64,000 nucleotides of DNA from an uncultured Acidobacteriota bacterium (GTDB taxonomy: Bacteria; Acidobacteriota; Thermoanaerobaculia; UBA5066; DATFVB01), in the NCBI GenBank assembly GCA_963813155.1, contig CAWEYG010000006.1, positions 32,001 to 96,000 of the forward strand. The letters are read 5' to 3'. A program made the translations under genes and the position numbers. The stretch's first letter is position 1; every line of letters starts with the position of its first letter. Of this stretch, positions 13,743 through 58,883 are shown piece after piece. Under the pieces are notes generated by a model that was not told where the DNA came from, did not search any database, and worked only from the letters and a program-made list of their open reading frames with translations.

Positions 13743-14950
13743 AAGTTCTTTTTGTGAACCAGGTTTATACGCCGGATGTCGCGGCGACCGCCGGCCAGCT
13801 TGCGGATCTCGCGGAGGCAATGGCCGCTCGGGGAGACGAGGTCCGGGTGATCGCGTCGCGTCGCGGATATTCGGAAGCCGGGCGAAGTTTTCCTCGCCGG
13901 TCGGCGGTAAAGGGCGTACGGGTCGAGAGGGTCTGGGAGCCTCGTCTCGAGAAGCGCGGCTTCTGGCGGCGGATCGTTCGGGCGGCAGCTTTTTTCGCAG
14001 GAGCGGGCGTTCGCGCGCTTGCCGGCCCGCGGCCCGACGCGATCGTCGTCCTGACCTCGCCGCCGCTGCTTCCCGTTCTCGGCCGAACCGTCGCTGCGCT
14101 TCGGCGGCGGCCGTATGCGATCTGGCTGATGGATCTGAATCCGGACGAGGCGATTGCCGCCGGCGCCGTGCGGCCGGGTGGGGCGACCGCGAAGCTCCTC
14201 GCGGGGCTGACCCGCTTCAGTCTTCGAGGGGCGGCGAGGGTCGTCGTGCTCGACCGATTCATGAGGGAAAGGGTGGAACGTTACGGCGTGCAGCCGGACC
14301 GGACCGTGATAATCGCTCCCTGGTCGCACGATGCGGACGTGCGCGACGACGAAGCTGGAAGGAATCAGTTCCGGAAACGGCACGCCCTCGAGGGGCGAAT
14401 CGTCGTGATGTATGCGGGCAACTTCAGCCTCTGCCATCCTCTCGACACTCTTCTCGAGACGGCGCGAAGATTGAAAGACGAGCCCGATTTCCTCTTCCTC
14501 TTCGTCGGGGGCGGCGAAGGAGCTCGTCAGGTCCGGGCGGCCGCCGAGTCGGGAACGCTTCCGAACGTCCGGCTGCTCTCTTATCAGCCCCGGGAAGGAC
14601 TCGCGGCCTCGCTCTCGGCTGCCGACGTGCACGTCGTCGTCATGGGAAACGCGTACGTCGGGATTCTCCATCCTTCGAAGGTGTACAACGCGCTTCGCGT
14701 CAACCGGCCCGTGCTCTACATCGGTCCGGAAGAGAGCCCCGTCGCGGACGTCCTCGAGGCTGCCGGCAAGGGCGCCGTCTGGCGCTCCGTTCGGCATGGC
14801 GACGTCGACGGCGCGGTCCGCGCGCTTCGCGAGTTGCAAGACGAGCGGGGAGAGGGCGCCGGTCTGGAGGAGAGCTCCGCGGAGCGATCCGTTCCGCGTA
14901 TGATCACGGAGTTGGATCGGGTCGCGCGAAAGGAGAGCGGAAGATCGTGA
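13739..14950 (+). CDS. Glycosyltransferase family 4 (WbuB/WcaI-like)
   Basis: VKVLFVNQVYTPDVAATAGQLADLA, LTSPPLL, MDLNPD, VMYAGNF, HPSKVY. Confidence 0.88.
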   Translation: MKVLFVNQVYTPDVAATAGQLADLAEAMAARGDEVRVIASRRGYSEAGRSFPRRSAVKGVRVERVWEPRLEKRGFWRRIVRAAAFFAGAGVRALAGPRPDAIVVLTSPPLLPVLGRTVAALRRRPYAIWLMDLNPDEAIAAGAVRPGGATAKLLAGLTRFSLRGAARVVVLDRFMRERVERYGVQPDRTVIIAPWSHDADVRDDEAGRNQFRKRHALEGRIVVMYAGNFSLCHPLDTLLETARRLKDEPDFLFLFVGGGEGARQVRAAAESGTLPNVRLLSYQPREGLAASLSAADVHVVVMGNAYVGILHPSKVYNALRVNRPVLYIGPEESPVADVLEAAGKGAVWRSVRHGDVDGAVRALRELQDERGEGAGLEESSAERSVPRMITELDRVARKESGRS

Positions 14951-15942
14951 CAGCAGCTACGAGAGTCCTCGTGACGGGCGCCGGGGGGTTCATCGGCCAG
15001 CATCTCGCCACTTACCTCAAGAGCAAGGGTTACTGGGTGCGGGGCGCGGACCTGAAATTCCCCGAATACTCGCCGAGCGCCGCGGACGAATTTTCGATCC
15101 TGGACCTGCGCCGCTGGGAAAACTGCCTCGAGGCCACGAAGGACGTCGACGAAGTCTACGCGCTCGCGGCGGACATGGGTGGAATGGGGTTCATTTCGGC
15201 CAATCACGCCCAGGTGCTGCACAACAACGCTCTGATCAATCTCCATACGATCGAGGCGGCTCGCCAGAACGGCGTGAAGCGCTACGTTTACTCGTCCTCC
15301 GCGTGTGTTTATCCGCAGTATCGCCAGCGCGAGGCGAGCGTCACGCCGCTCAAGGAAGAGGATGCGATGCCGGCGGACCCGGAGGACGGATACGGCTGGG
15401 AGAAGCTCGTCACCGAGAAGCTCTGCGGGTACTACCGCCACGATTTCGGGCTTGCGACTCACGTCGTCCGGTTCCACAACATCTACGGGCCGAAAGGAAC
15501 GTGGGACGGGGGGCGGGAAAAGGCTCCCGCCGCGCTGTGCCGCAAGATCGCCGCCGCAAAGCTCGCCGGAAGCCGCGAGATCGAGATCTGGGGCGACGGC
15601 GAGCAGACTCGCTCTTTCTGCTACATCGACGACTGCACGACGGGTCTCGAAAAGCTGATGCGCAGCGACTACGGCGAGCCTCTCAACCTGGGCCAGGACC
15701 GGCTGATCTCGATCAACGCGCTGGCGGACCTGATCGCCTCGATCGCGGGGGTCTCGGTCGTCCGGAAGCACGTGGAAGGGCCGCAGGGCGTGCGCGGAAG
15801 AAATTCCGACAACTCGCGCCTTCGCCAGGTCCTGAAGTGGGAGCCGACCGTCTCGCTCGAGGACGGTCTGGCGAAGACCTACGCGTGGATCGAAGACCAG
15901 GTGAAGAAGCGGGCAACCGAAACTGTGAGCAGTGAAAAGTGA
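14947..15942 (+). CDS. NAD-dependent epimerase, GDP-mannose 3,5-epimerase-like
   Basis: TGAGGFIG, ALAADMGGMGFI, SSACVYP, YGWEK, RFHNIYGP..TWDGGREKAPAALCRK, GVRGRNSDN, matching GME-type signatures. Confidence 0.88.
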   Translation: MTAATRVLVTGAGGFIGQHLATYLKSKGYWVRGADLKFPEYSPSAADEFSILDLRRWENCLEATKDVDEVYALAADMGGMGFISANHAQVLHNNALINLHTIEAARQNGVKRYVYSSSACVYPQYRQREASVTPLKEEDAMPADPEDGYGWEKLVTEKLCGYYRHDFGLATHVVRFHNIYGPKGTWDGGREKAPAALCRKIAAAKLAGSREIEIWGDGEQTRSFCYIDDCTTGLEKLMRSDYGEPLNLGQDRLISINALADLIASIAGVSVVRKHVEGPQGVRGRNSDNSRLRQVLKWEPTVSLEDGLAKTYAWIEDQVKKRATETVSSEK

Positions 15943-16089
15943 CTCGCAGACCCCCTTTTGCCGCTCGCGGCGCGAAGTCGTCGCAAAGGCCTTAGAACGC
16001 AGCGAGCGGAAAAGCGGGGCGAGTCCCATGACAGGACCCTCGCCGGCCGAGCAGTCTCTCCGAGGTGGCATGCCTAGGAAACTCGAGTA

Positions 16090-17931
16090 ATGCCGATCAT
16101 CTTTTTCGTCCTCCCGGCGATTCTGGCCGCCGCCATCAGTTTTTCCCTGACCCCGTTTGCGCGCCGTCTCGCCCTGCGGGTCGGCGCCGTGGACCAGCCG
16201 GGCCCGCGAAAGATGCACGCGCAGCCGACTCCGCGCCTGGGCGGTCTCGCGGTCGTCGCGTCGGTCTTCCTCGTGACCCTCCTGGTTCAGGCGGTCAACA
16301 ACCCGGGCATTCACAAGATCGAGCCCAGGCTTTTGACCGGGCTCGCGCTCGGAGTTCTGCCGGTGCTCGTCGTCTCGATCCGGGACGACATCCGCCCGCT
16401 GCGCGTCTTTCCGCGATTCCTCGCGCAGTTTGCGGGCGCGGGGATCGCGATGATGTACGGCATCCAGCTCGGAACGCGGATTCACCTCTTCGCCCTCGAC
16501 CTGTCGATCGGCTGGCTCTCGGTCCCGATTTCGCTTCTCTGGATCGTCGGGGTGACGAACGCGTTCAACATCGTCGACGGCCTCGACGGTCTCTCCGCCG
16601 GGCTCGCGCTCATCGCGGCCTTTTCCCTCGTCGGGGTGGGGTTGATGACGGGGCGTGTCGCGCTCGCGTCGATCTCGATGATCCTCGGTGGAGCGCTCGT
16701 GGGGTTCCTTCCGTACAACCTGTTCCCCGCGAGGATCTTTCTCGGGGACACGGGCTCGACCGCGATCGGCTTCTGGCTCGCGTGTCTTGCTCTTCGCGGC
16801 GGATCGACGCTGTCGGCGGGGATGGCCATTCTCGTTCCGATCCTCGTGATCGGCGTTCCGCTGACGGAAACTCTCGTTTCGATGATCCGTCGCTTCGTGC
16901 GCCGGATCGAGAAGAAGGGCGGGGGAGTGTTCTCCGCCGATCGCGAGCACATGCACCACCGCCTCGTCGCGAGCGGCATCACTCAGCGCCGGGCGGTCAT
17001 TCTTCTCTACAGCGCGGGAGTCGTCGCGGCCGCGGCGGCGCTCCTGTCGCTCTTTTTGACGGCTCAGGCCGCGGCGGTCCTCGTCGTTACCGTGCTCGCC
17101 GCGGCGGTGATCGGAATCACGCGCCTCAACTACGACGAGTTCGCTCTCGTTCGCCGCGGGTTCGTGCTGAAGATTTACGACGCCCCGGTGTTGAAGCGCG
17201 CGTTCTTCCCGGTCTTTTTCGACATCGCCCTGGTCGCGATCTCGATTTACGGGGCGATCGTGCTGAAGTCCGACGACTGGGGCCTCGTCTCGAGGCGCGC
17301 CCTGGCGCTCGAGCTGCTCGAGATCCTCCCGATCGTGACGATCGTCGTCTTCTGGTTTTTTCGGCTGTACAGGGGATCGTGGAGGAACGCGAGCATCGCC
17401 GACTTCATCCGGTCGAGCTCGGCGGTCGTGGCTTCTGCCGTTTTCGGCGCTCTCGTTTGCCTCGTGGTCCTGCGCAACCCGCCGAGAATCACCCTTTTCG
17501 TGATCGAGGCGCTGCTCCTTCTGCTCCTCGTCAACGGATCGAGGGCGTCTTACCGGCTGCTCTCCCACTGGAATCTCCGGTCCGTCCGGGAAGGGGAGCG
17601 CGTGCTCCTTTACGGGGCGGGACTCGCCGGGACGCTCGCGCTGCGGGAGATCCTGTCGAACCCCTCGTGGGGCATGCGACCCGTCGGGTTCATCGACGAC
17701 GATCCGGAGCGGATCGGCCGGGAGGTCAACGGATATCCGGTGATCGGGACACTCGCGTCGCTTCCCGAGGCGATCGGCGAGCGCCAGATCCGTTCGGTGA
17801 TCGTGGCCTCTCCCAAGATCGACCGGGAGCATCTCGCCGAGCTCGAGAAAATCGGCCGCGCGACAGGCATTCGGGTGAGCCGGTTCCGGATCGAATTCGT
17901 CGACATGGAGCCGGTGAAGACGCTTCCTTGA
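16090..17931 (+). CDS. WecA/MraY-like undecaprenyl-phosphate sugar-1-phosphate transferase fused to a CapD-N-like membrane plus Rossmann domain
   Basis: HAQPTPRLGG, RDD, NAFNIVDGLDGL, IFLGDTGS, ADREHMHH; C-terminal VLLYGAGLAG...GFIDDD. Confidence 0.85.
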   Translation: MPIIFFVLPAILAAAISFSLTPFARRLALRVGAVDQPGPRKMHAQPTPRLGGLAVVASVFLVTLLVQAVNNPGIHKIEPRLLTGLALGVLPVLVVSIRDDIRPLRVFPRFLAQFAGAGIAMMYGIQLGTRIHLFALDLSIGWLSVPISLLWIVGVTNAFNIVDGLDGLSAGLALIAAFSLVGVGLMTGRVALASISMILGGALVGFLPYNLFPARIFLGDTGSTAIGFWLACLALRGGSTLSAGMAILVPILVIGVPLTETLVSMIRRFVRRIEKKGGGVFSADREHMHHRLVASGITQRRAVILLYSAGVVAAAAALLSLFLTAQAAAVLVVTVLAAAVIGITRLNYDEFALVRRGFVLKIYDAPVLKRAFFPVFFDIALVAISIYGAIVLKSDDWGLVSRRALALELLEILPIVTIVVFWFFRLYRGSWRNASIADFIRSSSAVVASAVFGALVCLVVLRNPPRITLFVIEALLLLLLVNGSRASYRLLSHWNLRSVREGERVLLYGAGLAGTLALREILSNPSWGMRPVGFIDDDPERIGREVNGYPVIGTLASLPEAIGERQIRSVIVASPKIDREHLAELEKIGRATGIRVSRFRIEFVDMEPVKTLP

Positions 17932-17940
17932 CGCCAGGGT

Positions 17941-17988
17941 CCTCACCCCGACCTCTCGGTCACCCCTCTCCACCATGTGGAGAGGGGG
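17941..17988. repeat. BoxC-like repeat, left flank of the DUF559 gene
   Basis: cctcacccc...cccctctccac-cat-gtggagagggg. Confidence 0.85.
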
Positions 17989-18402
17989 AAAAACTTGAAT
18001 AGACTGTCGATCAAGCTGATGAATTGGCCGCTCACAAAGCAGATCGTCAAACGGTTGCGGCGTCAACCAACTCCGGCGGAAGCGATCCTTTGGGAGCGGC
18101 TGCGAGGTGGCGGCGTCCACGGGCTAAAGTTTCGTCGTCAGCACGCGATCGGTTCGTTCATCGCAGATTTCTACTGCGCGCGACCGCTTCTCGTCATCGA
18201 GCTCGACGGGGGGATTCACGAGTTTCAGAAAGTGAGAGACCGTGAACGTCAGATATATCTTGAGCGGCGGGGCCGAGCGGTGCTGAGGTTCTCGAATGAA
18301 GAGGTCCTCGCTGACCTTGAGGGAGTTGTTTCCCGAATTGTCGAGGCAGCCGCGCTCCGCACCCCCTCTCCAGATGCTGGCAGCCTTCAGATCGAGAAGT
18401 GA
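17977..18402 (+). CDS. DUF559 (Vsr-like, YcjD-like) endonuclease domain protein
   Basis: LRRQPTPAEAILWERLR, KFRRQH, IADFYC, IELDGGIH, VLRFSNEEV; start codon uncertain. Confidence 0.9.
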   Translation: MERGKNLNRLSIKLMNWPLTKQIVKRLRRQPTPAEAILWERLRGGGVHGLKFRRQHAIGSFIADFYCARPLLVIELDGGIHEFQKVRDRERQIYLERRGRAVLRFSNEEVLADLEGVVSRIVEAAALRTPSPDAGSLQIEK

Positions 18403-18428
18403 ACGCGGGAGGGGGCGGGGGGGTGAGG
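18362..18428. repeat. BoxC-like repeat, right flank of the DUF559 gene (interrupted hairpin)
   Basis: ccccctctccagatgctgg[insert]gagggggcgggggggtgagg equals the reverse complement of 5112-5152 with an insertion of about 28 bp. Confidence 0.8.
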
Positions 18429-18495
18429 CGCGGCTGGCAGAGCCCCAGGTCCCTTGCGGTCTCTTTCCCCTCGACTTAGAATGGCCCTCGGGAAA

Positions 18496-18799
18496 ATGTC
18501 TCAAAACGAACGAATGGTGCGCGCGGATGGATTTGCGACCCGAAATGTCGCGGGTGAGACGATCCTCGTGCCGATTCGCAAGGGCGTCGCCGACCTCGAG
18601 TGCGTCTTCACGCTCGACGAGGTCGGCTACGGTCGTCTGGCGCGCTCTCGAGTCGCCGAAGAGCGCCGAGGAAGTCGCCGGCGAAATCGCCCGGGAGTTC
18701 GACGTGGACGAATCGGAGGCCCGGCGGGATGTTGCCGAGTTTCTCGGCGTCCTCCGGGAATCGCGTCTCGTTCGCGACGCGGGCGAGGCCGCGCCTTGA
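18496..18799 (+). CDS. PqqD-family RiPP recognition element (RRE), frameshift near 18625
   Basis: FATRNVAGETILVPI...VFTLDEVG then VWRALESPKSAEEVAGEIAREFDVDESEARRDVAEFLGVLRESRLV, the typical stand-alone PqqD pattern. Confidence 0.88.
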
Positions 18800-20074
18800 G
18801 CGCCGAAGTCGGGCGGTATCTCGACTTCAGCGCTGCGCTGAATTCGCGCGTTCTGCAGACCCGAATTCCGTCCGTCGTCTCGATCGAGGTCACCCGGCGG
18901 TGCTCTCTCAATTGCTCGCATTGCTACAACAACCTTCCGATGGCCGACATGGAGACGGCCCGGAAGGAGCTTCAGTTCGAAGACTACTGCCGGGTCCTGG
19001 ACGAGCTCGCCGAGATGGGAACGCTCTGGCTGCTGTTCACCGGCGGCGAGATCTTCGCGCGGCGCGACTTCCTGGACATCTATACGTACGCGAAAAAGAA
19101 GGGCTTCATCATCACGCTCTTCACGAACGGAACGCTGATCACGCCGAAGGTCGCCGACTACCTCGCGGAGTGGCCCCCGTTCTCGATCGAGATCACGCTG
19201 TACGGCCGGACGAAAGAAACTTACGAGCGGCTGACGCGCATCCCCGGATCCTACGAGAGGTGCATCCGCGGAATCGAGCTCCTGAAGGAGCGCGGTCTCC
19301 CGCTGACTCTCAAGACCGTCGCGGTGACCGTCAACAAGCACGAGATCTGGGACATGAAGAAGTTCGTGGAGGACGACCTCGGGCTGCCGTTCAAGTTCGA
19401 TCGCGATGATCAATGCGCGCATCGACTGCTCCCTGTCGCCGCTGGAAGTGCGGCTGACGCCGGAAGAGATCGTGGATCTCGATCTTCGGGACCCCGAGCG
19501 CCAGGAGGAGTGGAAGCGGTTCTCGACGAAATTCATCGCGCCGATGCATCCCGAAGGAAAAGAGGACGAGGTCTACCACTGCGGCGGAGGAGCGAACACC
19601 TTCGCGCTCGATCCACTGGGGAAAATGACGATCTGCGTCCTTTCGCACTTCGACGAATACGACGTGCGGGCCGGGACCGTCCGCGAGGGCTGGGAGCATT
19701 TTCTGCTTCGGGTTCGCGCGAAGAAGACGACGCGCATCACGAAGTGCACGGCCTGCCAGCTGAAGGCCGTTTGCGGAATGTGCGCCGCGAACGCGGAGCT
19801 GGAGAACGGCGACGCCGAGGCCCCGGTGGATTTCCTCTGCCACACGGCGCACCTGCGGGCTCACACCCTCGGTTGGGAAATCCCGGCGCACGGCGAGTGC
19901 GAGTACTGCGAGGGCGCCGGTTACGCGACGGTGCGGGAAGAGGCGGGTCGTTTGATGGCGGGGCAGGCCCCGCGTGCGCGTCCGGCCATGTTGCCCTCGC
20001 TTTCCCCGGCGGGAGAATCGATGTCGTCGCTTCCCTCCGCGGGGGGCGGATGCGGCGGATGCGGAAGCCACTGA
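18796..20074 (+). CDS. Radical SAM protein with SPASM domain (frameshift near 19400)
   Basis: CSLNCSHC (CxxxCxxC), FTGGE, TNGT; SPASM CGGG..IC..CTACQLKAVCGMC...C; extra Cys-rich tail CEYC...CGGC. Confidence 0.92.
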
Positions 20075-20106
20075 AAAGGACGATTCGAATCGGATGGAGG
20101 TGAGAG

Positions 20107-20292
20107 ATGGAACGGACCTCGGATAGAAACTCGAACGGCAAGAAAAAATATCGGAAACCGTCCGTGAGGATGATTCCCCTGCGGCCCGAAGAGGCGATTC
20201 TCGGTTCGTGCAAGAGCGCGACGACGGGAGCCTTGAATGGCGGCGGCGGCCACTGCAACATTCCCACGAATTGCTCCACGATCGGGTCCTGA
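20107..20292 (+). CDS. Putative RiPP precursor peptide (61 aa)
   Basis: Strong RBS GGAGGTGA; leader KKKYRKPSV (RRE-binding YxxPxL-like) plus EEAIL; Gly/Ser/Thr-rich core with Cys35, Cys50, Cys56; directly follows the rSAM gene. Confidence 0.8.
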   Translation: MERTSDRNSNGKKKYRKPSVRMIPLRPEEAILGSCKSATTGALNGGGGHCNIPTNCSTIGS

Positions 20293-21290
20293 GCGAGCCG
20301 GGCTCTCTCCCGGCCTTCTTCTCGGTCGCCCGCGAGGGATTCGTTCTCCATCCCCGGGGTTCCCTGAACATTCGCCTGGATCGCGCGAGCCGTCTCTTTT
20401 CGGGCGAGACCCCGGAAGACACCGTCGAATTCGACGTGCGATGGGGAGACCTGAGCGGCGTGGACCGCGGAGCGGCCGCATTCGACTCGGGCGGCTGCTG
20501 GGCGCTGCGCCGCGATCCGGACGCCCTCGTTTTCGACGTCTATTCGCCCCTTTTCGGGGCGACCCCCATCCATTCGCTCCGTCTCGACGGCGACCGGCGA
20601 AGGGGAGAGATCGTCCTGGAGCGTTCCCACTTCCGCGACGGGGAGGGCGTCGATCCGCTCGGATTTCCGCTCGCGGAGCTGCTCACCAACCAGCGCCTCG
20701 CGCGCGCCGGCGGAGTCGAATTCCACGGGTGCGGAATCCGGACGCCGGAAGGAGGCGGCCTCCTGTTCGTCGGCCATTCGGGCGACGGAAAGACGACGAC
20801 CGCGAAGCTGTGGGACGGCCGGCCGGGAGTCACGATCCTGAGCGACGACCGGATCATCGTGCGAGCCGAGGAGGGTGAGGAGGGCGTGCCTCACCGGCTG
20901 CGCCGCCCTTCGAGCATCTCGAGGGGAAGCGAGCTGCTCTCCGGGGGTGAGAAGGGTGGCGCGTCCGAGCGCCCGACAGCTCGTACCGCATCTACGGCAC
21001 TCCCTGGCACGGCGAGGGGCAGTTCGCGGCGAACGCCGACGCGCCCCTCACGGCGATCTTCATTCTGGAGCGCGGGAAAGCAACTCGCGCCGTCCCCGTC
21101 AACGGCGCGGAGGCCGTTTCGCTCCTCTTCGCGCGGGCTTTTCCGCCCTTCTACGACGCGGCGGCCGTCGAGGCTGTGCTCGAAACGATCGACAGGATCG
21201 TCGAACGCGTTCCCGTGTATCGATTCGCATTCGTTCCGGATGCCACCGCGATCGAGGCCGCGCTCGAGATCCGCCGGGGAGGCGCCGTGA
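20289..21290 (+). CDS. HPr kinase-related P-loop protein (insertion and frameshift near 20890-20980)
   Basis: EFHGCG, LFVGHSGDGKTT (Walker A), LSDDRIIV, then YRIYGTPWHGEG in the shifted frame; start uncertain. Confidence 0.8.
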   Translation: MSEPGSLPAFFSVAREGFVLHPRGSLNIRLDRASRLFSGETPEDTVEFDVRWGDLSGVDRGAAAFDSGGCWALRRDPDALVFDVYSPLFGATPIHSLRLDGDRRRGEIVLERSHFRDGEGVDPLGFPLAELLTNQRLARAGGVEFHGCGIRTPEGGGLLFVGHSGDGKTTTAKLWDGRPGVTILSDDRIIVRAEEGEEGVPHRLRRPSSISRGSELLSGGEKGGASERPTARTASTALPGTARGSSRRTPTRPSRRSSFWSAGKQLAPSPSTARRPFRSSSRGLFRPSTTRRPSRLCSKRSTGSSNAFPCIDSHSFRMPPRSRPRSRSAGEAP

Positions 21291-21794
21291 GCACGAACGG
21301 TTTTTCGGAGCTGTGCGGCGACCTGCTTTCCGACGGAACGCCGATTCGTTTCCGGGCGACGCGGGGCGAGCATGGCTCCGGCGATCCGGGACGGCGACCT
21401 GTTGACGGTCGAGCCTGTCGCCAATCGCGCCCTTTCCGAAGGCGACATCGTGCTCTATCCGGTCGGAACTGGCTTTCGCGCCCATCGGGTGAGGAGCTTC
21501 GATCGGCACTGCAAAGAGTTGATCTGTCAGGGGGATAGCTGGTTCTGCCGTCCGGAGGTCGTTTCGGCCGGGGCGGTAATCGGGGTCGTGACGGGCCTCG
21601 GGTCGGGGGCGACCGCGGCTCCGCCCCGGCGGCCGTTGGTCATCTGGGGGAAGGCGCTCCGGGGACGTCTGGGGAGGGTGCTCCGGGCAGGCCTCAGGAT
21701 GGGATCTGGATTTCGGAGGGGAAAAATGGTAATCTCTCGACAGGCGTCGGAAGAGGGCCGACAAGGCTCCACGGGAAAGGGTTCACAAAAATGA
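21287..21794 (+). CDS. S24/S26-family peptidase (frameshift near 21362)
   Basis: IRFRAT-G-ASMAPAIRDGD (catalytic Ser), GDIVLY, AHRV (His), QGDS. Confidence 0.8.
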
Positions 21795-24700
21795 AATTCA
21801 CTAGAACTTGTGTAGCCTGGAAGAGCTTTGCTCTTTTCGGGGCGTTGGTCTTCGCTGCGCTCGCTTTTTCGAGCACGGCATCGGCAGCCCTCGCCGTCGA
21901 TAGCACGAGCAATGCGAGCAGCGCCGGCGCAGTCAATTCGCTGAGCTGGGTTCACACGACGAACACCTCGACGACCGGGCAAAACACGCTGCTCGTCGTC
22001 GGCGTCTCGATCAACGGCACGAGCACCGTCTCGAGCGTCACGATGGGAGCGACTCTCGGTTCCATCGGCTCGAGTATTCCGAGCGACGACCTGCCCTCGA
22101 ACCTGACTCTCGCCACGAGCAAGAACAGCACGAACAACCTGACACGAATGGAGATCTGGTATCTCCTGGCCCCGCCGGTCAAAGGCACGACGGCGGGGGC
22201 TTCGGGCTCCGAGCCGACGCTTCAGATCACGGTGACGCTCTCGGGCGGGGCGACGAAGTCGATGGTCGCGGGCGCCGTCTTCTTCACGGGCGCGATGCAG
22301 GTCGCGCCGACGGCCTGGACCGCGACGACCGCGGCGACTGGGAATGCTTCGATCACCGGAACATCGAATGCGACCGACATCGTCGTGGACACGATCGCGA
22401 CGATCGGGACCGCGACCTCGGTGACGGTCGACGGGGCCAGACCTCTCGGTGGAACGTCGCGACGGGCGGACCGCCACGAACGCGATCGGCGGCGGATCGA
22501 CGAAGGCGAACGCAACGTCCATGTCGTGGACGATCGGGACCGACGCACGACTGGGCGATGGGCGCTGTCGTCGTGCAGGCCTCGGCAAACACCCGTTTCA
22601 CGGCACCCGCATCAACATGGACGACCTCTACGGCATCGACTCGAACAATCCGGCGAACCCGGCCGTACCTCTCGCCGATCGGCATTCACCTGACGAACAC
22701 CGGTGCGCAGTTGACGGACGTGTCGGTCACGATCACGCTTTTCGACACCCCGAACAGCTGCGGCAGCGGCGGCACGACGGCGTGCGTCACGCTCAACAAC
22801 ACGACGTTCACGTCGCAGACGATCCCGGCCAGCGGGTAGCTTCGACTATTACTTCATTCTGAACGAGAGCAACCTGTTCGCGAAGAACAACGCGAAGACG
22901 TCGATCAACAAGGCCTTCAGCTATGTGATCACGGTTCACAGCGCGACCGTGCCCGCGACGGACGACCGACACCTTTCCTCCGGAATGGAGATGGCGATCG
23001 ATCTCGTCTCGCAGAACCGGAACACGACGGATTTCACGTCGTGCAACGGTATCTCGAGCGGTGACCGGCACCAGCCCCCGGAACAGATCGCCGTCATCGG
23101 TTCACGCAGGGTCTCCGAATTCCAGTGCACGATCACGTCCACCTCGACCGGAAGCGGCGCGTTCAACACGATGCGTATCTGGCAGGACTGGGACGGACAA
23201 CACTTTCGTGATCGACAAGGTCGACACGAACTACCCGACGGCGCACTTAGTACAGCCCTGACGAGCCCGGACTGCTTCAACAACGGCTGCGGCGGCTCGG
23301 GCGTACCCGTACACCCAGGTTACGTCACGCTTCGCGCGCGTCGGCTCCCTGGATCGCCTGACCGACTCCGAACGGGGTCGTGCGTGACGCCCTTCATCCT
23401 GGATCGATTCGGGCGGAACCTTCCATTACAACCAGACGTCGCCGGCGTCACGGCGTCGATCACGATCACGACCCCCACGGCCGTGAAGCTCCGCAGTCTC
23501 GATGTCGCGCGGCAAGGCGAGGACAACGTGGTCTCCTGGCGAACGGGACACGAGGTGAACAACCTCGGATTCCGGATCTATCGGGAGGACGCCAACGGCG
23601 GGCGGGTTCCCGTCACCAACGGGCTCGTCGCCGGGAACGTGCTCTTCAGCGGACCGTCGATTGCTCTCACTTCCGGCCGCAGCTACAGCTACAGGGATCA
23701 AAACGCTCCCGCCGGAGCGGCGTACTGGCTCGAAGACGTGGATATTTCCGGACCGTCGACGATGAACGGTCCCGCGATCGCGCGCGAGGAGGAAGAAGCT
23801 TCGAGGCTCTTCCCGGCGAGCGGCCAGAGCGAGACGATGAAGGCCGGCGGCAACTCTCCGCTGCTCGATTCGAGCTCGTTTGTCGGCAAAGGCGGGCATG
23901 GAAGTTCGAGCTCTCCCGGTTTCGACTCGAAGCCCCACGGGAAAGTTCAATCGGGAACGGCCAGCACGACTTCGGCCAGCCAGAACAGGCAGTTTTCGCT
24001 CGCTTCGAGCGCGGGAGTGAAGGCCCTCGTGAATCAGGAGGGGTGGTACCACGTGAGCCATCAGGACCTGATCAACGCGGGTTGGAACCCCGGCAACTCG
24101 CCGGCGAATTTGCAGCTCTTCGTCGAGGCGCAGCCGATCCCCATGCTCGTGAGCGACTCGGGCGGCGGCAACTACTCGATGGAGTTCTACGCGACGGGAC
24201 TCAACACGGTGGCGACCGACACGCGCGTCTATTGGATCGGTCTCAACTCCACGCCCGGCTCGCGTCTGGCGAACAAGAGCTCGGCTTCCGGCAGCTCGCC
24301 GGGCGCCGACTTTCCGTTCACCGTCTCGCGAAGAGATCGGGTCGTGTACGTTCCGGGAATTTTGAACGGCGACGCGGAGAGCTGGTACGGACCCATCGTC
24401 GGCGGAACTTCGTTCGGACCGGCCGATCAGTCGGTCACGGTCACCCACCTCGACACCTCCAACAGCGGATCCGCCAACCTCGAGTTCGCGATCGAAACGG
24501 CCACGCCGTCGGTCGGTCACGCGATCGACGTGACGGTCAACGGCAATTTCGCGGGCACGGTGACGCACTTCGACCAGGGCTATTTCGATTCCAACCTTTC
24601 GATCCCGGTTTCATGGCTCGTCGAGGGCACGAACTCGATTCTTCTTCAGGAGGAAGGCGATTCGAACTTCGCGATCATGGACTACGTCGCGCTGACGTAT

Positions 24701-26053
24701 CCTCACGTCTTCACGGCGGATTCCGATGCCCTCGAATTCACGACATCCGGCTCGAAACACGTCTCGATCGGGGGCTTCACCGTTCCGGGCGTTCGGGTGT
24801 TCGACGTGACGAACCCGTCGGCCGTCGCGGCCCTCTCCGCATCCGTCGGGCCTGACGGGAGCGGCGGATATGCGGTCACGGTCAACACGCCGTCCGCCGT
24901 CGGGGCGCTTCGCATACTGGCGGTCGGCAGCGATCGGGTTTCCGCGCCGGCAGGTCTCGCAAACAACACGCCGTCGGACCTGAACAAGAAGAACAATTCC
25001 GCGGACTTCGCGATGATCGCGTACCCGTCGTTCGTTTCGGCGCTCGCGCCGCTGCAGGCGCTCCGGCAGTCGCAGGGGTTGGCGACGCAGGTCGTCGACG
25101 TCACCGACATCTACGACGAATTCAGCTTCGGCGAGAAGGATCCCGCCGCGATCAAGGCGTTCCTGCAGTGGACACAGGCGAACTGGAAGAAAGCGCCGAG
25201 GTACGTGCTTCTCGCCGGCGACGGGTCGTACGACCCGCGCGACTATTTCGGAATCGGGACGACGGACTTCATTCCCGCGAAGCTCGTCCAGACCGTGTAT
25301 CTCAAGACCGCTTCGGACGACTGGTACGTCGATTTCAACAACGACGGGCTTCCCGACATGGCGATCGGGCGCCTTCCGGCGGAGAGCCTGTCGGATGCGT
25401 CCACCATGGTTTCGAAGATCGTGGGCTACGACTCAGCGGCGCCGAGCTCGAGCGTCCTTCTCGTCGGGGACACCGAGGACGAGAACGACTTCCACGGCGC
25501 GATCTCGGCCCTCAAGACGCTCGTTGCCGGAAAGACGGCCCAGGCGATCTGTATCGACCCCGATCCGGTCGACGCGAGCTACCCGAACATCGGGCCCTGC
25601 GTGAGCGCTTCGACGGCGCACGGCCAGATCCTGAACGCCTTCAATAGCGGCCAGTCGGTCGTGAACTGGGTGGGACACGGCGAGCCGACGTCCTGGAGCA
25701 AGAGCGACGTCTTCGACACGTCCGACGTTCCGTCCCTCGCGAATTCCGCGCACCTGCCCCTTGCGCTCACGATGGACTGCCTGAACGGGTACTTCCATGA
25801 CCCGAACACCGAATCCTTCGCCGAGGCTCTCCTGCGCGCTCCGAACGGCGGCGCGGTGGCGGTGTGGGCGTCGTCTTCTCTGACTCTCTTCGAATCGCAG
25901 GTCCCGGTGAACCAGACGCTCTTCCAGCTTCTGTTCACGACGCCCGCCCCCCGGCTGGGCGACGCCGTGAAGACGGCGAAGGGCGTGACGACGGACTCCG
26001 ACGTTCGCAGGACCTGGAACTTCTTCGGCGATCCGACCATGAAACTGAAGTAA
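21791..26053 (+). CDS. Large secreted protein with Ser/Thr-rich N-terminal domain and C-terminal peptidase C25 (gingipain-family) domain; several frameshifts in 22440-23430
   Basis: Signal peptide MKFTRT...ASA; internal PTAVKL..WRTGHEVNNLGFRIYR module; IYDEFSFG, YVLLAGDGSYDP, MAIGRLP, NWVGHG (His), MDCLNGYF (Cys), FFGDPTMKLK. Confidence 0.85.
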
Positions 26054-26084
26054 CGGCCAGTCGAGCTAGGCGTAGCCCCCTGGA

Positions 26085-26114
26085 AAGCCCCCGGAAACGG
26101 GGGCTTCTTTTTTT
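26085..26114 (+). terminator. Rho-independent terminator after the first C25 gene
   Basis: aagcccccg-gaaa-cgggggctt followed by cttttttt. Confidence 0.88.
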
Positions 26115-26308
26115 GCGGATCGCCGGAGATTTCGTCTCACGCCATATTGAGAGTGCAACGCATGGGCCGCCTCCTAGTCTGGGCGGCAGCATGCGTAAGT
26201 TGCGTGTTTCAAGATAGTTTGAAGACTGCGATCTCGCTGGCCTCGCCGGGCGAGTCTCGATTCCGGATTTCGATTCTGGAAATTGGAGAGCGGTGAACTC
26301 ACCAGTCG

Positions 26309-26347
26309 TCTGAAGGCTGCCAGCTGGAGAGGGGGACGGGGGTGAGG
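26309..26347. repeat. BoxC-like half element, inverted relative to 18362-18389
   Basis: tctgaaggctgccagctggagagggggacgggggtgagg. Confidence 0.7.
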
Positions 26348-26620
26348 TCGGTACGTCAACACCTGGATTGCTGGTGCGGGTGACGAACACCCTCCGTGAC
26401 CCTTTCCCGATTTCAAGAGGACGAATCTCTTCGCACTCCCCTTAGAGGACTCGCGCGAGACGCGACGGTTTTGAGCGACCTCGGCGACGAGCGTTCTCCC
26501 CTCCCTTCTCCAGAATTCCTTTCTCAGTTTCGGAAACCTCTTCCGCCCCGCCTTTCCCTCTCTCTTCTCAACCGATTCGTTTCTCGCAGGTTGACTCCGA
26601 TGGGTCGTGTCCGGCACGGC

Positions 26621-26635
26621 TGGTCCCGACATTGC
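26621..26635 (+). promoter_or_regulatory. Candidate sigma-54 (-24/-12) promoter
   Basis: TGGTCCCGACATTGC has the GG-N10-GC spacing of TGGCACN5TTGC, about 58 bp upstream of ATG 26694. Confidence 0.5.
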
Positions 26636-26693
26636 GATCTCCCTTCGCCGAGTGGCAACGGAAACGAAACGAAAGAACGAAAGGGAGACGACA

Positions 26694-28883
26694 ATGAAAA
26701 CCACGACGAACCGGATCTCGACCCTGATTCTCGGAACGACTCTTCTTCTCTCCATCGGCAAGACCCGCCTGCGGCCGGCAAGGGCGGCGGCGGTGGCTCC
26801 ACCGGCGGCACGACGACGACGATCACGACGAATCCTCTGGCGGGCCAGGCCGGCGCGAAGATCTTCGTGCAGCAGGAAGGCTGGTACAGCGTCTCGCGTC
26901 AGAACCTGATCGACGCGGGATGGGATTGCGGAACTTCGGCCACGTACCTTCAGTTGTGGGCGGAGGGAACGCAGCAGTCCGATCCTGGTCAACGCGGGCA
27001 CGAACGGGACCCTGGACCCGACCGACACGATCGAGTTCTACGCGACGGGGATCGACACGCCGTCGACGGGCACGCGCGTCTACTGGCTCGTCCAGGGCAC
27101 GTCCCCCGGGCTTCGAATTGCGACTACGGCCGCTCCCAAGGGAAAGCTTGGGTCCACGCCGTCGAACTTCAATTCTTCGGTGAGCATCAATCCCAAAGAG
27201 TATTACGCGCCCGGAATCGCGAACGGCAGCCCGGACGGTTTCTACGGCGACATGGTGACTTCGACGCCGATCACGGAGTCGATCACGGTCATCGACCCGG
27301 CGTCCTCGACGGCAAGCGCGACTCTCACGGTGACTCTGACCAGGCGCCTACTGGTGGAGCCACAACGTCAACGTCAGCCTGAACGGCAACCTGGCGGGCT
27401 CGATGAACTTCAACGGCGAGCTCGTGCAGACGACGAGCTTCACCGTTCCGAGCTCCTGGATCGTTCCCGGCGCGAACTCGGTGACGTTCGTCGCCCCGGA
27501 CGGCGGCAACGACGTCAGCCTCGTCACGTCGATCTCTCTCACCTACCCGCGGCTCTACAAGGCCCTGAACAACTCGCTCAAGTCGACGGCGACCGGCAGC
27601 GTCTCGCTGCTCGGTCGACGGATTCTCGAATTCTTCGATCCGCGCCTTCGACATCACGACTCCGGCGACTCCGCAACAGCTCGTTGGTGACGATCTCGGC
27701 AGGGGGAGGGGGTTACTCGGCGACGCTTACGACGCCTAGCTCGACCGGGAACCGAACAGTGTTGGCAATTGCGACCGACCAGATCCTCTCTCCCGCCGGG
27801 ATCGTCCCCAACGTTTCCTCGAATCTGAGCGCGACCACGAACTCAGGCGAACTTCGTGATCATCGCGTACCCGACGATGATGTCGGCGGCTTCCGCCCTC
27901 GCCGCGCTCCGCCAGTCGCAGGGAATGCAGGTCTCCGTCGTCAACGTCACCGACGTTTACGACGAGTTCAACTTCGGCGAAAAGGACCCCTCGGCCATCA
28001 AGAACTTCCTTCAGTACACCCAGACCAAGTGGGCGAAGCCGCGCCTCGCTACGTGCTGCTCCTCGGTGGCGCGTCGTCGACACGCGGAACTACCTCGGCT
28101 ACGGCAACCTGGACCTCGTTCCGACGCGATTACATCGCGACGAGCGCTCAGCCGGACCGCCTCGGATGACTGGTTCGTCGATTTCAACAACGACGGGCTA
28201 CCGGACATGGCGATCGGACGGATTCCGGTGCTGACCGCCGCCGACGCTGCGACAGTGATCTCGAAGATCACGAGCTACGGCCAGACGACGGGCGCCTGGA
28301 CGAAGAACGTCCTGATGGCCGCCGACGCGAACGACGCGAACAATGATTTCGAAGGCGCGTCGGCCAACGTCGCCGCGCAGATCCCCATCGGCTATTCCGT
28401 CAGAACGTCTCTGACCGGGCAGATCGGCGGCTCAGCGGCTCGGACCGCGATCCCGGACGGCATCAACGTCAGGGGCAGCTCATCGTCAACTACAACGGGC
28501 CACGGTTTTGAGCAGGCGTGGAGCAGCTCGAGAATCTTCTACGATCGACGACATGTCCAACCTGACGAATGCATCACAGCTCCCCTTCGTCGTGTCGATC
28601 GGCTTGCCTGACCGGCTACTTCCAGGACCCGTCGACGGTTTCCTTCGCGGCTGCGGCGCTCTCAGCGCCGAATGCGGAGCCGTTGCCGTTTGGGCGTCCT
28701 CGGGGTTGCCCGGTCTTCCGGGTGAAGCGCTGGTAAACCAAGCGCTCTTCAGCGAGCCTGCTCGGCGGGAGCCGCCCGTCTCTCGGCGACGCGGTCATGC
28801 AGGCCAAGGCCGCAACGACCGACCAGGACGTTCGGCGAACCTGGATCTTGTTCGGCGATCCGACGATGAAGCTGGCGCAGTAA
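26694..28883 (+). CDS. Second secreted peptidase C25-family protein (multiple frameshifts)
   Basis: MKTTTNRISTLILG signal-like start; KIFVQQEGWYSV, VYDEFNFGEKDP, SDDWFVDFNNDGLPDMAIGRIP, GHG and CLTGYF split across frames, LFGDPTMKLAQ-TAA. Confidence 0.82.
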
Positions 28884-28925
28884 CGCCGGCTCCTTCGTCT
28901 TCGATTCGTTGTCCTCCCTCCACTC

Positions 28926-28958
28926 CGGCCCCTCTCCAGCGAACCTGGAGGGGGGCCG
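28926..28958. repeat. BoxC-like hairpin between convergent genes
   Basis: cggcccctctccag-cgaac-ctggaggggggccg. Confidence 0.7.
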
Positions 28959-28992
28959 TCCCTTTTGTGGAGCGGAAGAGTGTCGTGTTGCG

Positions 28993-30866
28993 TTAGCGGC
29001 GCCGGACGGTTGTGCTCTTCGGCGCGCACTGCAAGTTACCAGGGCTCAGCCGGAAAATTTGCGCCTGGATGTCGGGTGACCGCTTGAAGGGATTGCGCGT
29101 CGCCGATCGAAAGATCCGGACCGGCGAGTCGGGGACGGCGCAGGGGGCGAGCGTGGATGTCAGATTGCGCTCCACCGGAAGAACGAGAACCGTGGCACCC
29201 GACGATCGAGCGAGAGAGAAGATGTTCTTCGGGAAGGGCTCGGCCGAGTAGTTCGCGGCGTCGCTTCCGACGAAAGGGCGGGGAATCAGGGCCGAGGACC
29301 GGAAGACGGCGAGGACGACATCCGAGTCCCGAAGAGTCCGGTCGAGCCATCGGGCTTCGGCGTAGCCATTCGCGTGGGCAGTCATCACTCGGTCGCGCCA
29401 GCCGTTTGAAAACGCGCCGGGAATCAGAATTACCGCCATCCCGACGGCGACGATTGCCGTGGCCGCGCCTTGAAGCGAGAGGGCTTTGAACAGGAGGGCC
29501 TTTCGGGGACCTGGCGATGCGGCGACGGCGGCCGCCCCTGCCCAGAGATACGGTTCGAGAAAAAACCTCGCCGACAGCTGGCCGAAAGCCACGATCAGGA
29601 TCGTCGACATGAAGGCGGCGGCGAGAAAGAGTCTGGACTTGCCTCGGGTTCCGAACGCGGTAACGCCCGCGAAGACGCCGAGGCCGAGCATCGTCGAAAA
29701 GTCCGCGGGATGGATCGTTGCGGTCAGATCGAGGGGCAGGCGAATCAACCGGCCGAAGGATCGCGGGCCCGCATAGTCCCGCAGGTATTCCGCGAATCGG
29801 ATCACGGCGGGATCGGGCTGGCCGCGAAGCCTCTCGAGCAGGGGAGAGAGCGGATCGCCGTAGAAAGCGAAACTTCGGGCGTAGACCGGGAGTGCGAAGA
29901 ACGAGAAAGCTGCGGCGGTGATTCCCGCGGCCGTGACGAGCCGGCCGCAGCGGCGAGCAGCCGTCGAGCGCGAGAGCCAGCACGACGAGTCCTGAGAGGA
30001 GAAACGAATACTTGCAGGCGATCGCGAACATGGTTGCTCCGATTGCGAGCGTGAGGATCCCGGCGTCGAGGTTGTTCCCGGAGCGCACGATCAGGGCCAG
30101 AGCCAACGTCAGTGCGGCGGCGGGCAGAAGCTGCGGTTTCTGATTCGGAACCAGGAAGAGCATCAGGGGACAGGCCACGACGAGCAGCGCCGCGAGGATT
30201 CGTCCCCGGCGATCACTCGCGCCGGCCGAGAGAGCGATCACGGCGGCGACGAGCCCCGAGAATTGAAAGACCGCGCTCAGGACATCAGTCCCCGCCGCAA
30301 GTCCCAGGAGGTTCAGCCCTTCCCCGAGTCCTGTCAGCCGAGCGCAGAACCAGTCAGGCCTCGGGTAGGCGGCTCCATGGCGAATCCAATCCAGAGGGAC
30401 GCCGAGGTGGTAGTCGAGTGAGTCGGCGTCGGTAGGGGGGGCAAGGGCCGCCGCGCCGAGGGCGCAGGTCGTTACCGCCAGCGCCGACGAGTGCGATCCG
30501 CTCGAAGGACCGGGACCTCGCAGACGCGGCTCCGAAGCGACGTGACATCTTGCTCGTGTCCGGCGAGCCAGCCGGGGAATTTCGAAGGCTCCGGCGACGG
30601 CCAGCGCTCGCCCGAGCCAGCGCAGACCCGATGGGAAATGCGAATCCGGACCATGCGGCGGCGAGCGAGACACGAGGCGAGTCCAGCCGCAGCGAGGATG
30701 AAGCCGGCCGCCCGGTCGAGGCGATCGTCACTTCCGGGTCGAATCCTGGACGCGATCGAGCGCCCGACACCGGCGGTAGCCGAGAACGATCAGATACCGC
30801 GAGCACGGCGGGAAGAGGCTCCGCGAGCACGAGATCGGCGAGCTGGAGAAAGTGCGTTTGCGTCAT
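28993..30866 (-). CDS. Polytopic membrane protein, DUF1420-like / putative GT-C glycosyltransferase (frameshifted)
   Basis: PPTDADSLDYHLGVPL, QKPQL, ACKYSFL, QLSARFFLEPY across ORFs 30354-30866, 29036-30673 and 28993-29805. Confidence 0.6.
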
Positions 30867-58857: not shown

Positions 58858-58883
58858 CGCGCGCGAATATACAATGCCCCGCG

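Follow-up and report, generated by a model that had tools for sequence, protein, structure and literature searches.

A conserved RiPP-type gene cassette with a radical SAM/SPASM enzyme, an HprK/ScmC-like protein and adjoining PorU-like peptidases in an uncultured Acidobacteriota bacterium

The DNA analysed here, referred to below as the window, is a stretch of 64,000 nucleotides from one contig (CAWEYG010000006.1) of the genome of an uncultured Acidobacteriota bacterium (GCA_963813155.1, labelled G000 in our sample). It carries a cassette of five genes, which code for a stand-alone PqqD-family recognition element (RRE) for peptides made on the ribosome and modified after translation (RiPPs), a radical S-adenosylmethionine (SAM) enzyme with a SPASM domain, a precursor peptide of 61 amino acids (aa), a P-loop protein resembling HprK and ScmC, and a soluble peptidase of the S24/S26 type (Table 1). 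As judged from gene content and conservation, it is highly likely that these genes form a conserved RiPP-type maturation cassette. A reading of the same letters that preceded this analysis, referred to below as the original prediction, had described five co-oriented genes joined by four overlaps; all five genes lie where it had placed them, on the forward strand, and the tetranucleotides TTGA (18796), CTGA (20289), GTGA (21287) and ATGA (21791) are present. Two of these junctions are less simple than had been proposed, CTG 20289 being unlikely as a start codon and the use of GTGA requiring a further indel upstream, and the operon does not end after five genes, as the ATGA at 21791 also opens a sixth one, left out at that time, which encodes a large PorU-like peptidase of family C25.

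Table 1. Position of the cassette and of the adjoining peptidase genes in the window
Feature	Position	Strand	Remarks
Five-gene cassette	18496-21794	+	PqqD-type RRE, radical SAM/SPASM, 61-aa peptide, HprK/ScmC-like P-loop protein, S24-like Ser/His peptidase
Stand-alone PqqD-family RRE	18496..18799	+	Frame change at ~18629
Radical SAM/SPASM enzyme, ~425 aa	18796..20074	+	Frame change at 19401
61-aa precursor peptide, intact open reading frame	20107..20292	+	No family match
HprK/ScmC-like P-loop protein, putative peptide kinase	20271..21290	+	Frame change within 20879-20951
Soluble S24/S26-like Ser/His-type peptidase	21287..21794	+	Frame change at ~21362
Large PorU-like C25 (gingipain-family) peptidase, probably secreted	21791..26053	+	Frame apparently changes twice, between 22560 and 22925
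Second PorU-like C25 peptidase gene	26396..28996	+	Several frame changes

A scan of species genomes (one genome per species) gave 506 candidate stretches, 462 of which encode a relative of the radical SAM enzyme, and the best 80 of these 462 (L001-L080), with up to 6 kb fetched on each side, constitute the 80 loci to which the counts below refer. The gene order RRE, radical SAM enzyme, peptide, kinase-like protein, S24-like peptidase recurs in them, and because of this recurrence the arrangement is considered to be far beyond chance. De novo clustering of all their open reading frames (ORFs) retrieved the radical SAM enzyme in 80 loci, the kinase-like protein in 77 (the gene being intact in 69) and an intact RRE homologue in 71, and an S24-like ORF was found in 60. 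A small peptide ORF accompanies the radical SAM gene in 78 of the 80, which, together with the fact that no cut-off of a characterised family is reached by the enzyme, supports the RiPP-type pathway put forward in the original prediction. Barring the C25 genes and the antisense or alternative-frame shadows of the cassette genes, no other gene family is present in more than 13 of the 80 loci.

The cassette belongs to a very large family and is not a one-off, a scale which had been missed before. At E <= 1e-10, 5312 proteins among 6385 candidates match the N-terminal piece of the radical SAM enzyme (68-98% identity for the best 120 matches), and a profile search at E <= 0.001 assigned at least 4110 proteins, among 8000 candidates scored, to the peptide family. 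The titles of the records point mostly to classes of Acidobacteriota, with a few Myxococcales, Entotheonella, Methylomirabilis and Aminicenantes; three others read Dehalococcoidia (L029), Bordetella parapertussis (L031) and Bathyarchaeia (L047), and these odd labels are probably due to binning or labelling errors rather than to transfer. Within an even sample of 401 genomes of the phylum, 37 had a match to the radical SAM enzyme at E <= 1e-80. Divergent cassettes were also identified around radical SAM paralogues of 32-52% identity (L081-L086, in genomes G017, G059, G294, G176, G038 and G058), with the same gene order, an RRE in five of the six loci, a kinase-like gene in all six and, in five, a peptide with a YxxPxL leader, the CK motif described below, three Cys and a terminal Ser. 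Since such distant paralogues share the type of cassette and a recognisable peptide, the family appears broader than the close orthologues. Near-identical sequence occurs in four soil or unspecified metagenome runs, and the cassette is widespread in soil bacteria and abundant in soil data, not rare. No description of it was found in the full-text literature, a coverage outside which subscription journals and supplements lie, and a term look-up found it likewise absent from PMC10288494, PMC7470986, PMC13642348 and PMC13692751; our guess is that it probably enters surveys based on genome mining as a 'ranthipeptide' or an 'RRE-containing' cluster.

The window peptide, the sole copy in its genome, scores 80.2 bits against the family profile and is composed of a leader with a YxxPxV motif and LRPEEAILGSCK, followed by a Cys-containing core ending in GS. 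The consensus of 77 aligned peptides reads KKPYxKPxxxxVxLRPEEAVLGxCKxxxxxGPxxxxCxxxxxCSxxGS, those of L054 and L075 having been left out of the alignment for their aberrant C-termini. Tyr and Pro of YxxP, as well as E, L, C and K of the junction motif, are found in 77/77 sequences and the two later Cys in 76/77 and 74/77, while the last residue of the 79 peptides is Ser in 74 and Thr in three. None of the 120 family members listed bears a Pfam domain or a name other than 'hypothetical protein'. These database relatives display the leader-junction motif in 119 cases, with exactly three Cys from CK onward in all 119, and a stretch of 26-28 residues from CK to the end; their core is rich in Gly, with 22% Ser, 9% Thr, 0.3% Asp and no Glu. 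Their last residue is Ser in 116 and Thr in four, so that a terminal Ser or Thr is fixed in 120/120, and the internal Ser/Thr positions vary. The leader, with its YxxPxL motif, resembles that of lasso peptides, and leads to an invariant junction with the core, LRPEEAVLGxCK. Because conservation drops past the CK motif, the leader is suggested to end near it, and AVLG followed by xCK would agree with the -3/-1 rule of the signal-peptidase type.

The RRE is recognised in the piece at 18620-18796 by the Pfam PqqD model (47.8 bits, cut-off 23.4), and its best NCBIfam matches are the two models of lasso PqqD chaperones (35.6 against 70) and that of the HPr-rel-A PqqD protein, all three staying below their cut-offs. 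As described in an excerpt of PMC10368454, YxxPxL at positions -17 to -12 of lasso leaders is the motif that B1 RREs recognise and require. A co-fold of the RRE and peptide of L001, each with its own alignment, gave an interface score (ipSAE) of 0.43 with a best value of 0.00 among three controls, a predicted score in the local distance difference test (pLDDT) of at least 51 for the partner, and an agreement between runs of 97% of contacts or more. The mark applied to such co-folds is reached by 116 of 157 solved complexes and by 2 of 215 mismatched pairs, yet just 18 of those 157 complexes reach it with an ipSAE <= 0.60, as do both mismatches. A co-fold at this score is more often wrong than right unless the pairing is likely beforehand; it lends weak support to the predicted contact between RRE and leader, and may owe its score to likeness with solved RRE-leader complexes.

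The radical SAM gene of the window is read in two pieces, the first (18796-19401) matching Radical_SAM at 84.5 bits (cut-off 29.5) and the second (19403-20071) the SPASM model TIGR04085 at 31.9 bits (cut-off 27), and an intact protein of 426 aa (P0001) is 98% identical to it. The CxxxCxxC motif is CSLNCSHC in the window piece, and its cysteines C36, C40 and C43 are invariant in our alignment of the family (A2), as are the SPASM cysteines C262, C280, C317, C320, C326, C329 and C348. Four further invariant Cys (C368, C371, C420 and C423) belong to an HGxCxYC motif and a GGCxSCG end in the C-terminal tail (window 19900-20071) and may form an additional metal site. The nearest solved relatives by profile, PqqE (45.8 bits) and SkfB (39.6 bits), are both peptide modifiers. 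No NCBIfam equivalog cut-off is reached, the peptide maturases giving 54-95 bits against cut-offs of 265-850, and the models of the SCIFF maturase, SkfB, PqqE, MftC, ScmE/F, GeoRSP and WgkB all remaining far from theirs. The enzyme does not reach the cut-off of a characterised family outside RiPP biosynthesis either, membership of such a family having been named as fatal to the original prediction: the best score is 109 bits and the cut-offs are at least 265. With its CxxxCxxC motif, SPASM domain and adjacent peptide and RRE, it is, as far as sequence can tell, a member of the radical SAM/SPASM peptide maturases. A role in anti-phage defence was considered and rejected, PADLOC returning only generic viperin-type radical SAM matches (48.6 bits) for this enzyme and no match for the remaining five proteins. 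Another radical SAM/SPASM ORF, unrelated to this one, lies at 56966-57961, in a part of the window (56966-60166) where its neighbours are a gene resembling lipid A acyltransferases and one for a Trp-halogenase-like FAD enzyme split over two frames.

For the kinase-like gene, the possible starts are CTG 20289, unlikely as said above, and an in-frame TTG at 20271. The sole family match of the window piece (20289-20879) is HprK_rel_B at 19.1 bits (cut-off 200), and a P-loop (GHSGDGKTT) and an SDDR motif are visible in the translated frame. Across 51 sequences, no variation is seen in the G, S, G and K of the P-loop, in S-D-x-R or in GTPWHG. An AlphaFold model of a homologue (pLDDT 95.6; predicted template modelling score, pTM, 0.92) finds phosphoenolpyruvate (PEP) carboxykinases as its best solved fold matches (E 2e-7, query TM 0.42-0.49) and HPr kinases next (E 7e-5, target TM 0.47-0.52). 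PEP carboxykinases and HPr kinases share one kinase fold, and the model places the protein in it. Relatives at 35-46% identity carry the Pfam domain ScmC (PF27840), as do 22-51% of the members of the nearest Atlas clusters, which supports the lead to the SynChlorMet cassette given in the original prediction; the protein itself scores 21 bits with TIGR04249 ScmC (cut-off 125) and shows no ScmC match in local Pfam scans. Four longer fused forms were found, including P0241 (ScmC with radical SAM), P0242 (with methyltransferase) and P0243 (with C25 peptidase), and the Atlas clusters also hold radical SAM-ScmC and ScmC-S24 forms; some of these could be read-throughs of gene calling. HPr-kinase homologues of lasso clusters phosphorylate the C-terminal Ser of the precursor before ring closure, and the precursors concerned have little in common beyond this residue, according to parts of PMC8498205; another kinase of this type, BsfK, is speeded up by the lasso RRE in the account excerpted from PMC10368454. 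The fixed C-terminal Ser/Thr (77/79 and 120/120 peptides) gives specific support to the Ser/Thr phosphorylation that had been predicted; the modification itself, its site included, we infer.

The S24-like piece of the window (21372-21791) scores 17.5 bits with Peptidase_S24 (cut-off 23.3) and 20.1 bits with archaeal-type signal peptidase I (cut-off 51.85), and the intact homologue of L001 exceeds the Pfam S24 cut-off with 26.8 bits; archaeal-type signal peptidase I is also the best NCBIfam match (28.4 against 51.85). The Ser-His type that had been predicted is borne out by 64 S24 ORFs, 62 of which possess GxSMxP, with the Ser nucleophile, and 59 an xHR[VILM] motif, where His stands in place of the LexA-type Lys. 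The general base is Lys in LexA and bacterial signal peptidases and His in the archaeal or ER type, and the His of the xHR motif is presumably the general base here. The S24-like sequences inspected by eye present no hydrophobic anchor.

The start codon (ATG 21791) of the first C25 gene overlaps the stop of the S24 gene, and its ORF, with two apparent frame changes, continues into a stretch of 1042 aa ending in a C25 domain. Peptidase_C25 matches this gene at 271 bits and the second one at 140.6 bits (27856-28608), and the model of the type IX sortase PorU (NF033707, cut-off 420) gives 245 and 90 bits, the first protein aligning to positions 3-733 of the 1095 in the model (E 1e-72) without reaching its last third. 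These two genes are the only C25 matches in the whole 3.8-Mb source genome. A homologue of some part of the first C25 ORF lies near 40 of the 80 loci. When the 49 loci with full flanks (6 kb on both sides) are considered, the C25 catalytic domain occurs in 27, only downstream in 20, only upstream in five and on both sides in two; the long C25 matches are on the same strand in 23 cases and on the opposite strand in three, and several remaining loci show the N-terminal part of a C25 gene running off the fetched end. The closest named relative (L001) has one C25 gene on each side of its cassette, the linkage extends to two loci labelled Myxococcota (L038 and L076), and in the divergent L086 a C25 gene directly precedes the RRE. 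In the phylum sample, a C25 gene is present in 33 of the 37 genomes with a radical SAM match against 128 of the 364 without, these genomes being related and not independent and the 128 including the unpublished G152, and in many of them the distance between the radical SAM and C25 genes, on one contig, is at most about 12 kb. A link of PorU-like proteins with a RiPP-type cassette was in no paper we found. This linkage suggests that the cassette could be functionally tied to the C25 peptidases, a tie that forms part of the chain of steps weighed below and shares its probability.

Each of the RRE, radical SAM, kinase-like and S24 genes of the window contains at least one frame change, and it had to be considered whether these are errors of the assembly or signs of decay. 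Contigs of relatives in soil metagenomes (90-99% alike, from different studies) lack one base at 18629, 19401 and 21362: the base at 18629 is missing in run X2, with a concordant clipped end in X1, and those at 19401 and 21362 are missing in both X1 and X2. The three sites coincide exactly with the break points of the RRE, radical SAM and S24 genes. Aligned with intact proteins of about 425 aa, the two radical SAM pieces join exactly end to end, and not one residue is missing between them. In other parts of the window, the Pfam domains of a GT4 glycosyltransferase (~4.5 kb), a DUF1420 protein (~29.9 kb) and a Trp-halogenase-like protein (~59.5 kb) are split over two frames and both C25 genes are broken likewise, and since unrelated single-gene domains are split across overlapping frames, indel errors throughout the assembly are suggested. 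The break in the kinase-like gene lies outside this comparison: around 20860-20988 every related contig ends or departs from the window, depth in the bin 20857-20973 is close to nil, and in the sequence as it stands no stop codon separates the kinase-like frame from the S24 frame. About 70-90 extra bases are present in this gene between the SDDR motif and GTPWHGE; L068 and L077 have insertions at the same point, and the extra bases may represent a variable loop or an assembly fault. Because related contigs lack the base at three sites and unrelated genes of the window are also split, assembly error is likelier than decay, and the frame changes of the cassette are very probably assembly indels. 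That the cassette is instead a decaying pseudogene cluster with real mutations in the source genome appears clearly unlikely. Such a decay would agree with at least four frame changes within 3.3 kb next to unbroken epimerase and glycosyltransferase genes upstream (14947-17931) and 3.1 kb of unbroken sequence in the first C25 gene, with the status of the compared contigs, which come from relatives 90-99% alike and not proven to be the same strain, and with the presence of the cassette in 0/7 sampled genomes of the same order. It is opposed by a coding sequence fully preserved apart from the frame changes, by radical SAM pieces 96-98% identical to the intact protein and abutting exactly, by three breaks that are single extra bases absent from the contigs of two studies, by similarly split genes across the window, by the nature of the genome (a 3.8-Mb assembly of 23 contigs, 90.8% complete) and by an intact peptide gene.

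The best explanation of these data is a chain of steps in which the stand-alone PqqD RRE would bind the precursor of about 60 aa by its YxxPxL-type leader, the radical SAM/SPASM enzyme would modify the core of 26-28 residues at its three fixed Cys, most likely by thioether cross-links, the HprK/ScmC-like enzyme would add a phosphate to the peptide, with the near-invariant C-terminal Ser as the most likely site, the leader would be cut off by the soluble Ser/His S24-like peptidase, plausibly after the invariant AVLG, and the whole system would be functionally tied to the adjoining PorU-like C25 peptidases. We infer the chemical steps, their order and the role of the product, and consider the chain as a whole only slightly more probable than its opposite. 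Several observations weigh against it. The best NCBIfam score of the radical SAM enzyme, obtained from its N-terminal half, is to the heme-pathway protein AhbD (109 bits against 500), and the thioether-forming models are not reached (PapB 55.7 against 340, AlbA 54 against 850, StsB 81 against 625), while the core is devoid of the Asp/Glu acceptors common in ranthipeptides. The NCBIfam matches of the kinase-like protein (HprK_rel_B, ScmC, HprK_rel_A) are weak and below every cut-off, its P-loop and DDR align to HPr kinase/phosphorylase only at E 0.57, and the lasso kinase BsfK phosphorylates an internal Ser3 and not the C-terminus, in the part of PMC10368454 dealing with its site. The S24 gene is not found in 20 of the 80 loci, 11 of which are contigs shorter than 5 kb and six of which are flanked at either end by the full 6 kb; exporters are not among the conserved neighbours, an ABC gene occurring near just 11 of the 80 loci; and C25 genes are common in genomes without the cassette (128/364). 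The distribution is patchy, with a close orthologue (>550 bits) in only 15 of the 401 phylum genomes, counting the source genome, and in none of the seven sampled genomes of its order. Product, modification and binding are, for all members of the family, predictions.

It is rather unlikely that the same RiPP cassette carries out a different chemistry, in which the ScmC-like protein would act on internal Ser/Thr or be an ATPase other than a kinase, and the radical SAM enzyme would form something other than thioethers. Internal phosphorylation could then be a tailoring step, or could activate the residues towards elimination and the addition of Cys in the manner of class III/IV lanthipeptides, and the radical SAM enzyme could, for instance, epimerise a residue, form a C-C link or alter the invariant Lys. 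A core with 22% Ser, 9% Thr and three Cys would suit such reactions, as would the Lys following the first Cys in 77/77 peptides, the radical SAM enzyme fitting no thioether family model, the fusion of one relative (P0242) to methyltransferase domains and a related lasso kinase acting on an internal Ser (PMC10368454, from the excerpt cited above). The genes conserved across the 80 loci, however, include no lyase or cyclase family, and the internal Ser/Thr vary whereas the terminal one is fixed in 120/120; fixed Cys spacing beside a SPASM enzyme is also the usual setting of sacti- and ranthipeptides.

Another reading, which we hold to be quite improbable, takes the peptide as a working part of the biology of the PorU-like C25 proteins (a sortase acceptor or anchor, a dedicated protease inhibitor or a maturation factor) and not as a free natural product. 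The nearness of C25 homologues to half of the 80 loci (40/80, within 6 kb), the catalytic domain in 27/49 full-flank loci, mostly downstream and on the same strand, the recurrence of the linkage in the Myxococcota-labelled L038 and L076 and in the divergent L086, the flanking of the cassette by the only C25 genes of the source genome, the joining of C25 and ScmC domains in P0243 and the lack of a conserved exporter all speak for it, as does the sortase-like nature of PorU, stated in part of PMC4560394. Yet 22 of the 49 full-flank loci have no C25 catalytic domain within 6 kb, C25 genes are frequent without the cassette (128/364), the C25 proteins stay below the PorU cut-off (245 against 420), and P0243 may be a gene-calling read-through. 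An extended form, in which cassette and C25 proteins would be one system and the cross-linked, leader-free phospho-Ser peptide would act as acceptor or anchor for a sortase-like C25 transpeptidase, being joined to the C25 protein itself or to a cargo via its new N-terminus or its invariant Lys, is highly improbable when all its parts are taken jointly; if true, it would constitute a RiPP-built surface-attachment or protein-tagging system independent of type IX secretion.

Should the chemistry of the preferred chain (thioether cross-links, C-terminal phosphorylation and S24-type leader removal) be true, it would define a new RiPP class in which a leader and an RRE of the lasso style come together with a radical SAM/SPASM enzyme, with an enzyme resembling HPr kinase and, for the removal of the leader, with a soluble Ser/His peptidase of the S24 type; we know of no RiPP pathway with an S24-type leader peptidase. 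Neither the precursor nor the enzyme has a name or a family model. The precursor, with its fixed C-terminal Ser, would also provide a visible substrate for ScmC proteins of the SynChlorMet type, known from bioinformatics only, and so make ScmC function directly testable. The C25 linkage raises the question of the role of large secreted PorU-like proteases outside type IX secretion.

The first 17,931 nucleotides of the window are occupied by a polysaccharide-synthesis locus, in the 18 kb upstream of the cassette, with GT1, GT2 and GT4 glycosyltransferases, a Wzy_C domain, a carbamoyltransferase, three Acyl_transf_3 proteins, an NAD epimerase and a GT4/CoA-binding priming transferase; none of these genes is conserved beside the cassette in the 80 loci. 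A DUF559 (endonuclease-like) gene at 17977-18402 directly precedes the RRE and is not conserved in the related loci. In agreement with the original prediction, no domain of a lasso cyclase, lanthionine synthetase or ABC exporter was detected in the window, among the 96 ORFs of at least 230 aa outside 15940-28995, those within this interval having been scanned individually for domains; it had overlooked that an ABC half-transporter (ABC_membrane and ABC_tran), although absent from the window, is encoded at most 6 kb from the cassette in 11 of the 80 loci (e.g. L053:1799-3721, minus strand). A GC hairpin follows the precursor gene in the window (20297-20314). A conserved transcription attenuator at this place was considered and rejected, as the 60 nt past the peptide stop fold no better than controls (median -15.2 kcal/mol in 77 loci against -15.8 in 693 control windows from radical SAM genes, one-sided p 0.79). 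No RNA data set is listed among the runs containing this stretch.

Among known systems, PorU, a sortase-like enzyme in the portion of PMC4560394 concerned, shares the full C25 domain and an alignment to its model with the C25 proteins described here, which differ in scoring below its cut-off (245 against 420) and in being linked to a RiPP-type cassette. In the pyrroloquinoline quinone (PQQ) and mycofactocin pathways (PqqA/D/E; MftA/B/C), too, a small peptide is accompanied by a PqqD-type chaperone that stands alone, by a radical SAM/SPASM enzyme and by a peptidase. The present enzyme is distant from theirs (75-84 bits against 381 for PqqE, 81-83 against 265 for MftC), the modified motif is different and a kinase-like enzyme is present, and there is no evidence of a partner enzyme using a cofactor. 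An association of an RRE and a radical SAM/SPASM enzyme with a precursor that is short and has its Cys at fixed positions is likewise found for sacti- and ranthipeptides. The SCIFF peptides among them are widely conserved, and the likeness to the present family lies in an unusual conservation across genomes with one copy per genome. In contrast to these pathways, the RRE is here a separate protein, no maturase cut-off is reached, the kinase-like enzyme and the S24 peptidase are core parts, and the radical SAM enzyme has four extra Cys.

The phosphorylated lasso peptides (paeninodin, pseudomycoidin and Bsf) resemble the cassette, as far as described in portions of PMC8498205 and PMC10368454, in that the PqqD RRE stands alone, the leader is of the YxxPxL type, a homologue of HPr kinase is encoded and the precursor has Ser as its last residue. 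However, no lasso cyclase or B2 protease is found among the conserved neighbours in the 80 loci or in the window, the core is almost without the Asp/Glu used for ring closure, and the places of cyclase and B2 protease are taken by a radical SAM/SPASM enzyme together with an S24-like peptidase. SynChlorMet (TIGR04249 ScmC, TIGR04250 ScmE, TIGR04251 ScmF, PF27840) is a cassette defined by bioinformatics only, with which a PqqD-family protein, a radical SAM/SPASM enzyme and an HPr-kinase-like protein, possibly of the ScmC type, are shared. Its equivalog cut-offs are far off (ScmC 21 against 125, ScmE 95 against 400, ScmF 60 against 400), and it contains two radical SAM enzymes (ScmE and ScmF) where the present cassette contains one. 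The latter also differs in that its precursor is clearly identified and in having an S24-like peptidase and C25 peptidases linked to it. The cassette is real and uncharacterised, of the RiPP type and related to SynChlorMet, and is possibly a new class within the known RiPP kind.

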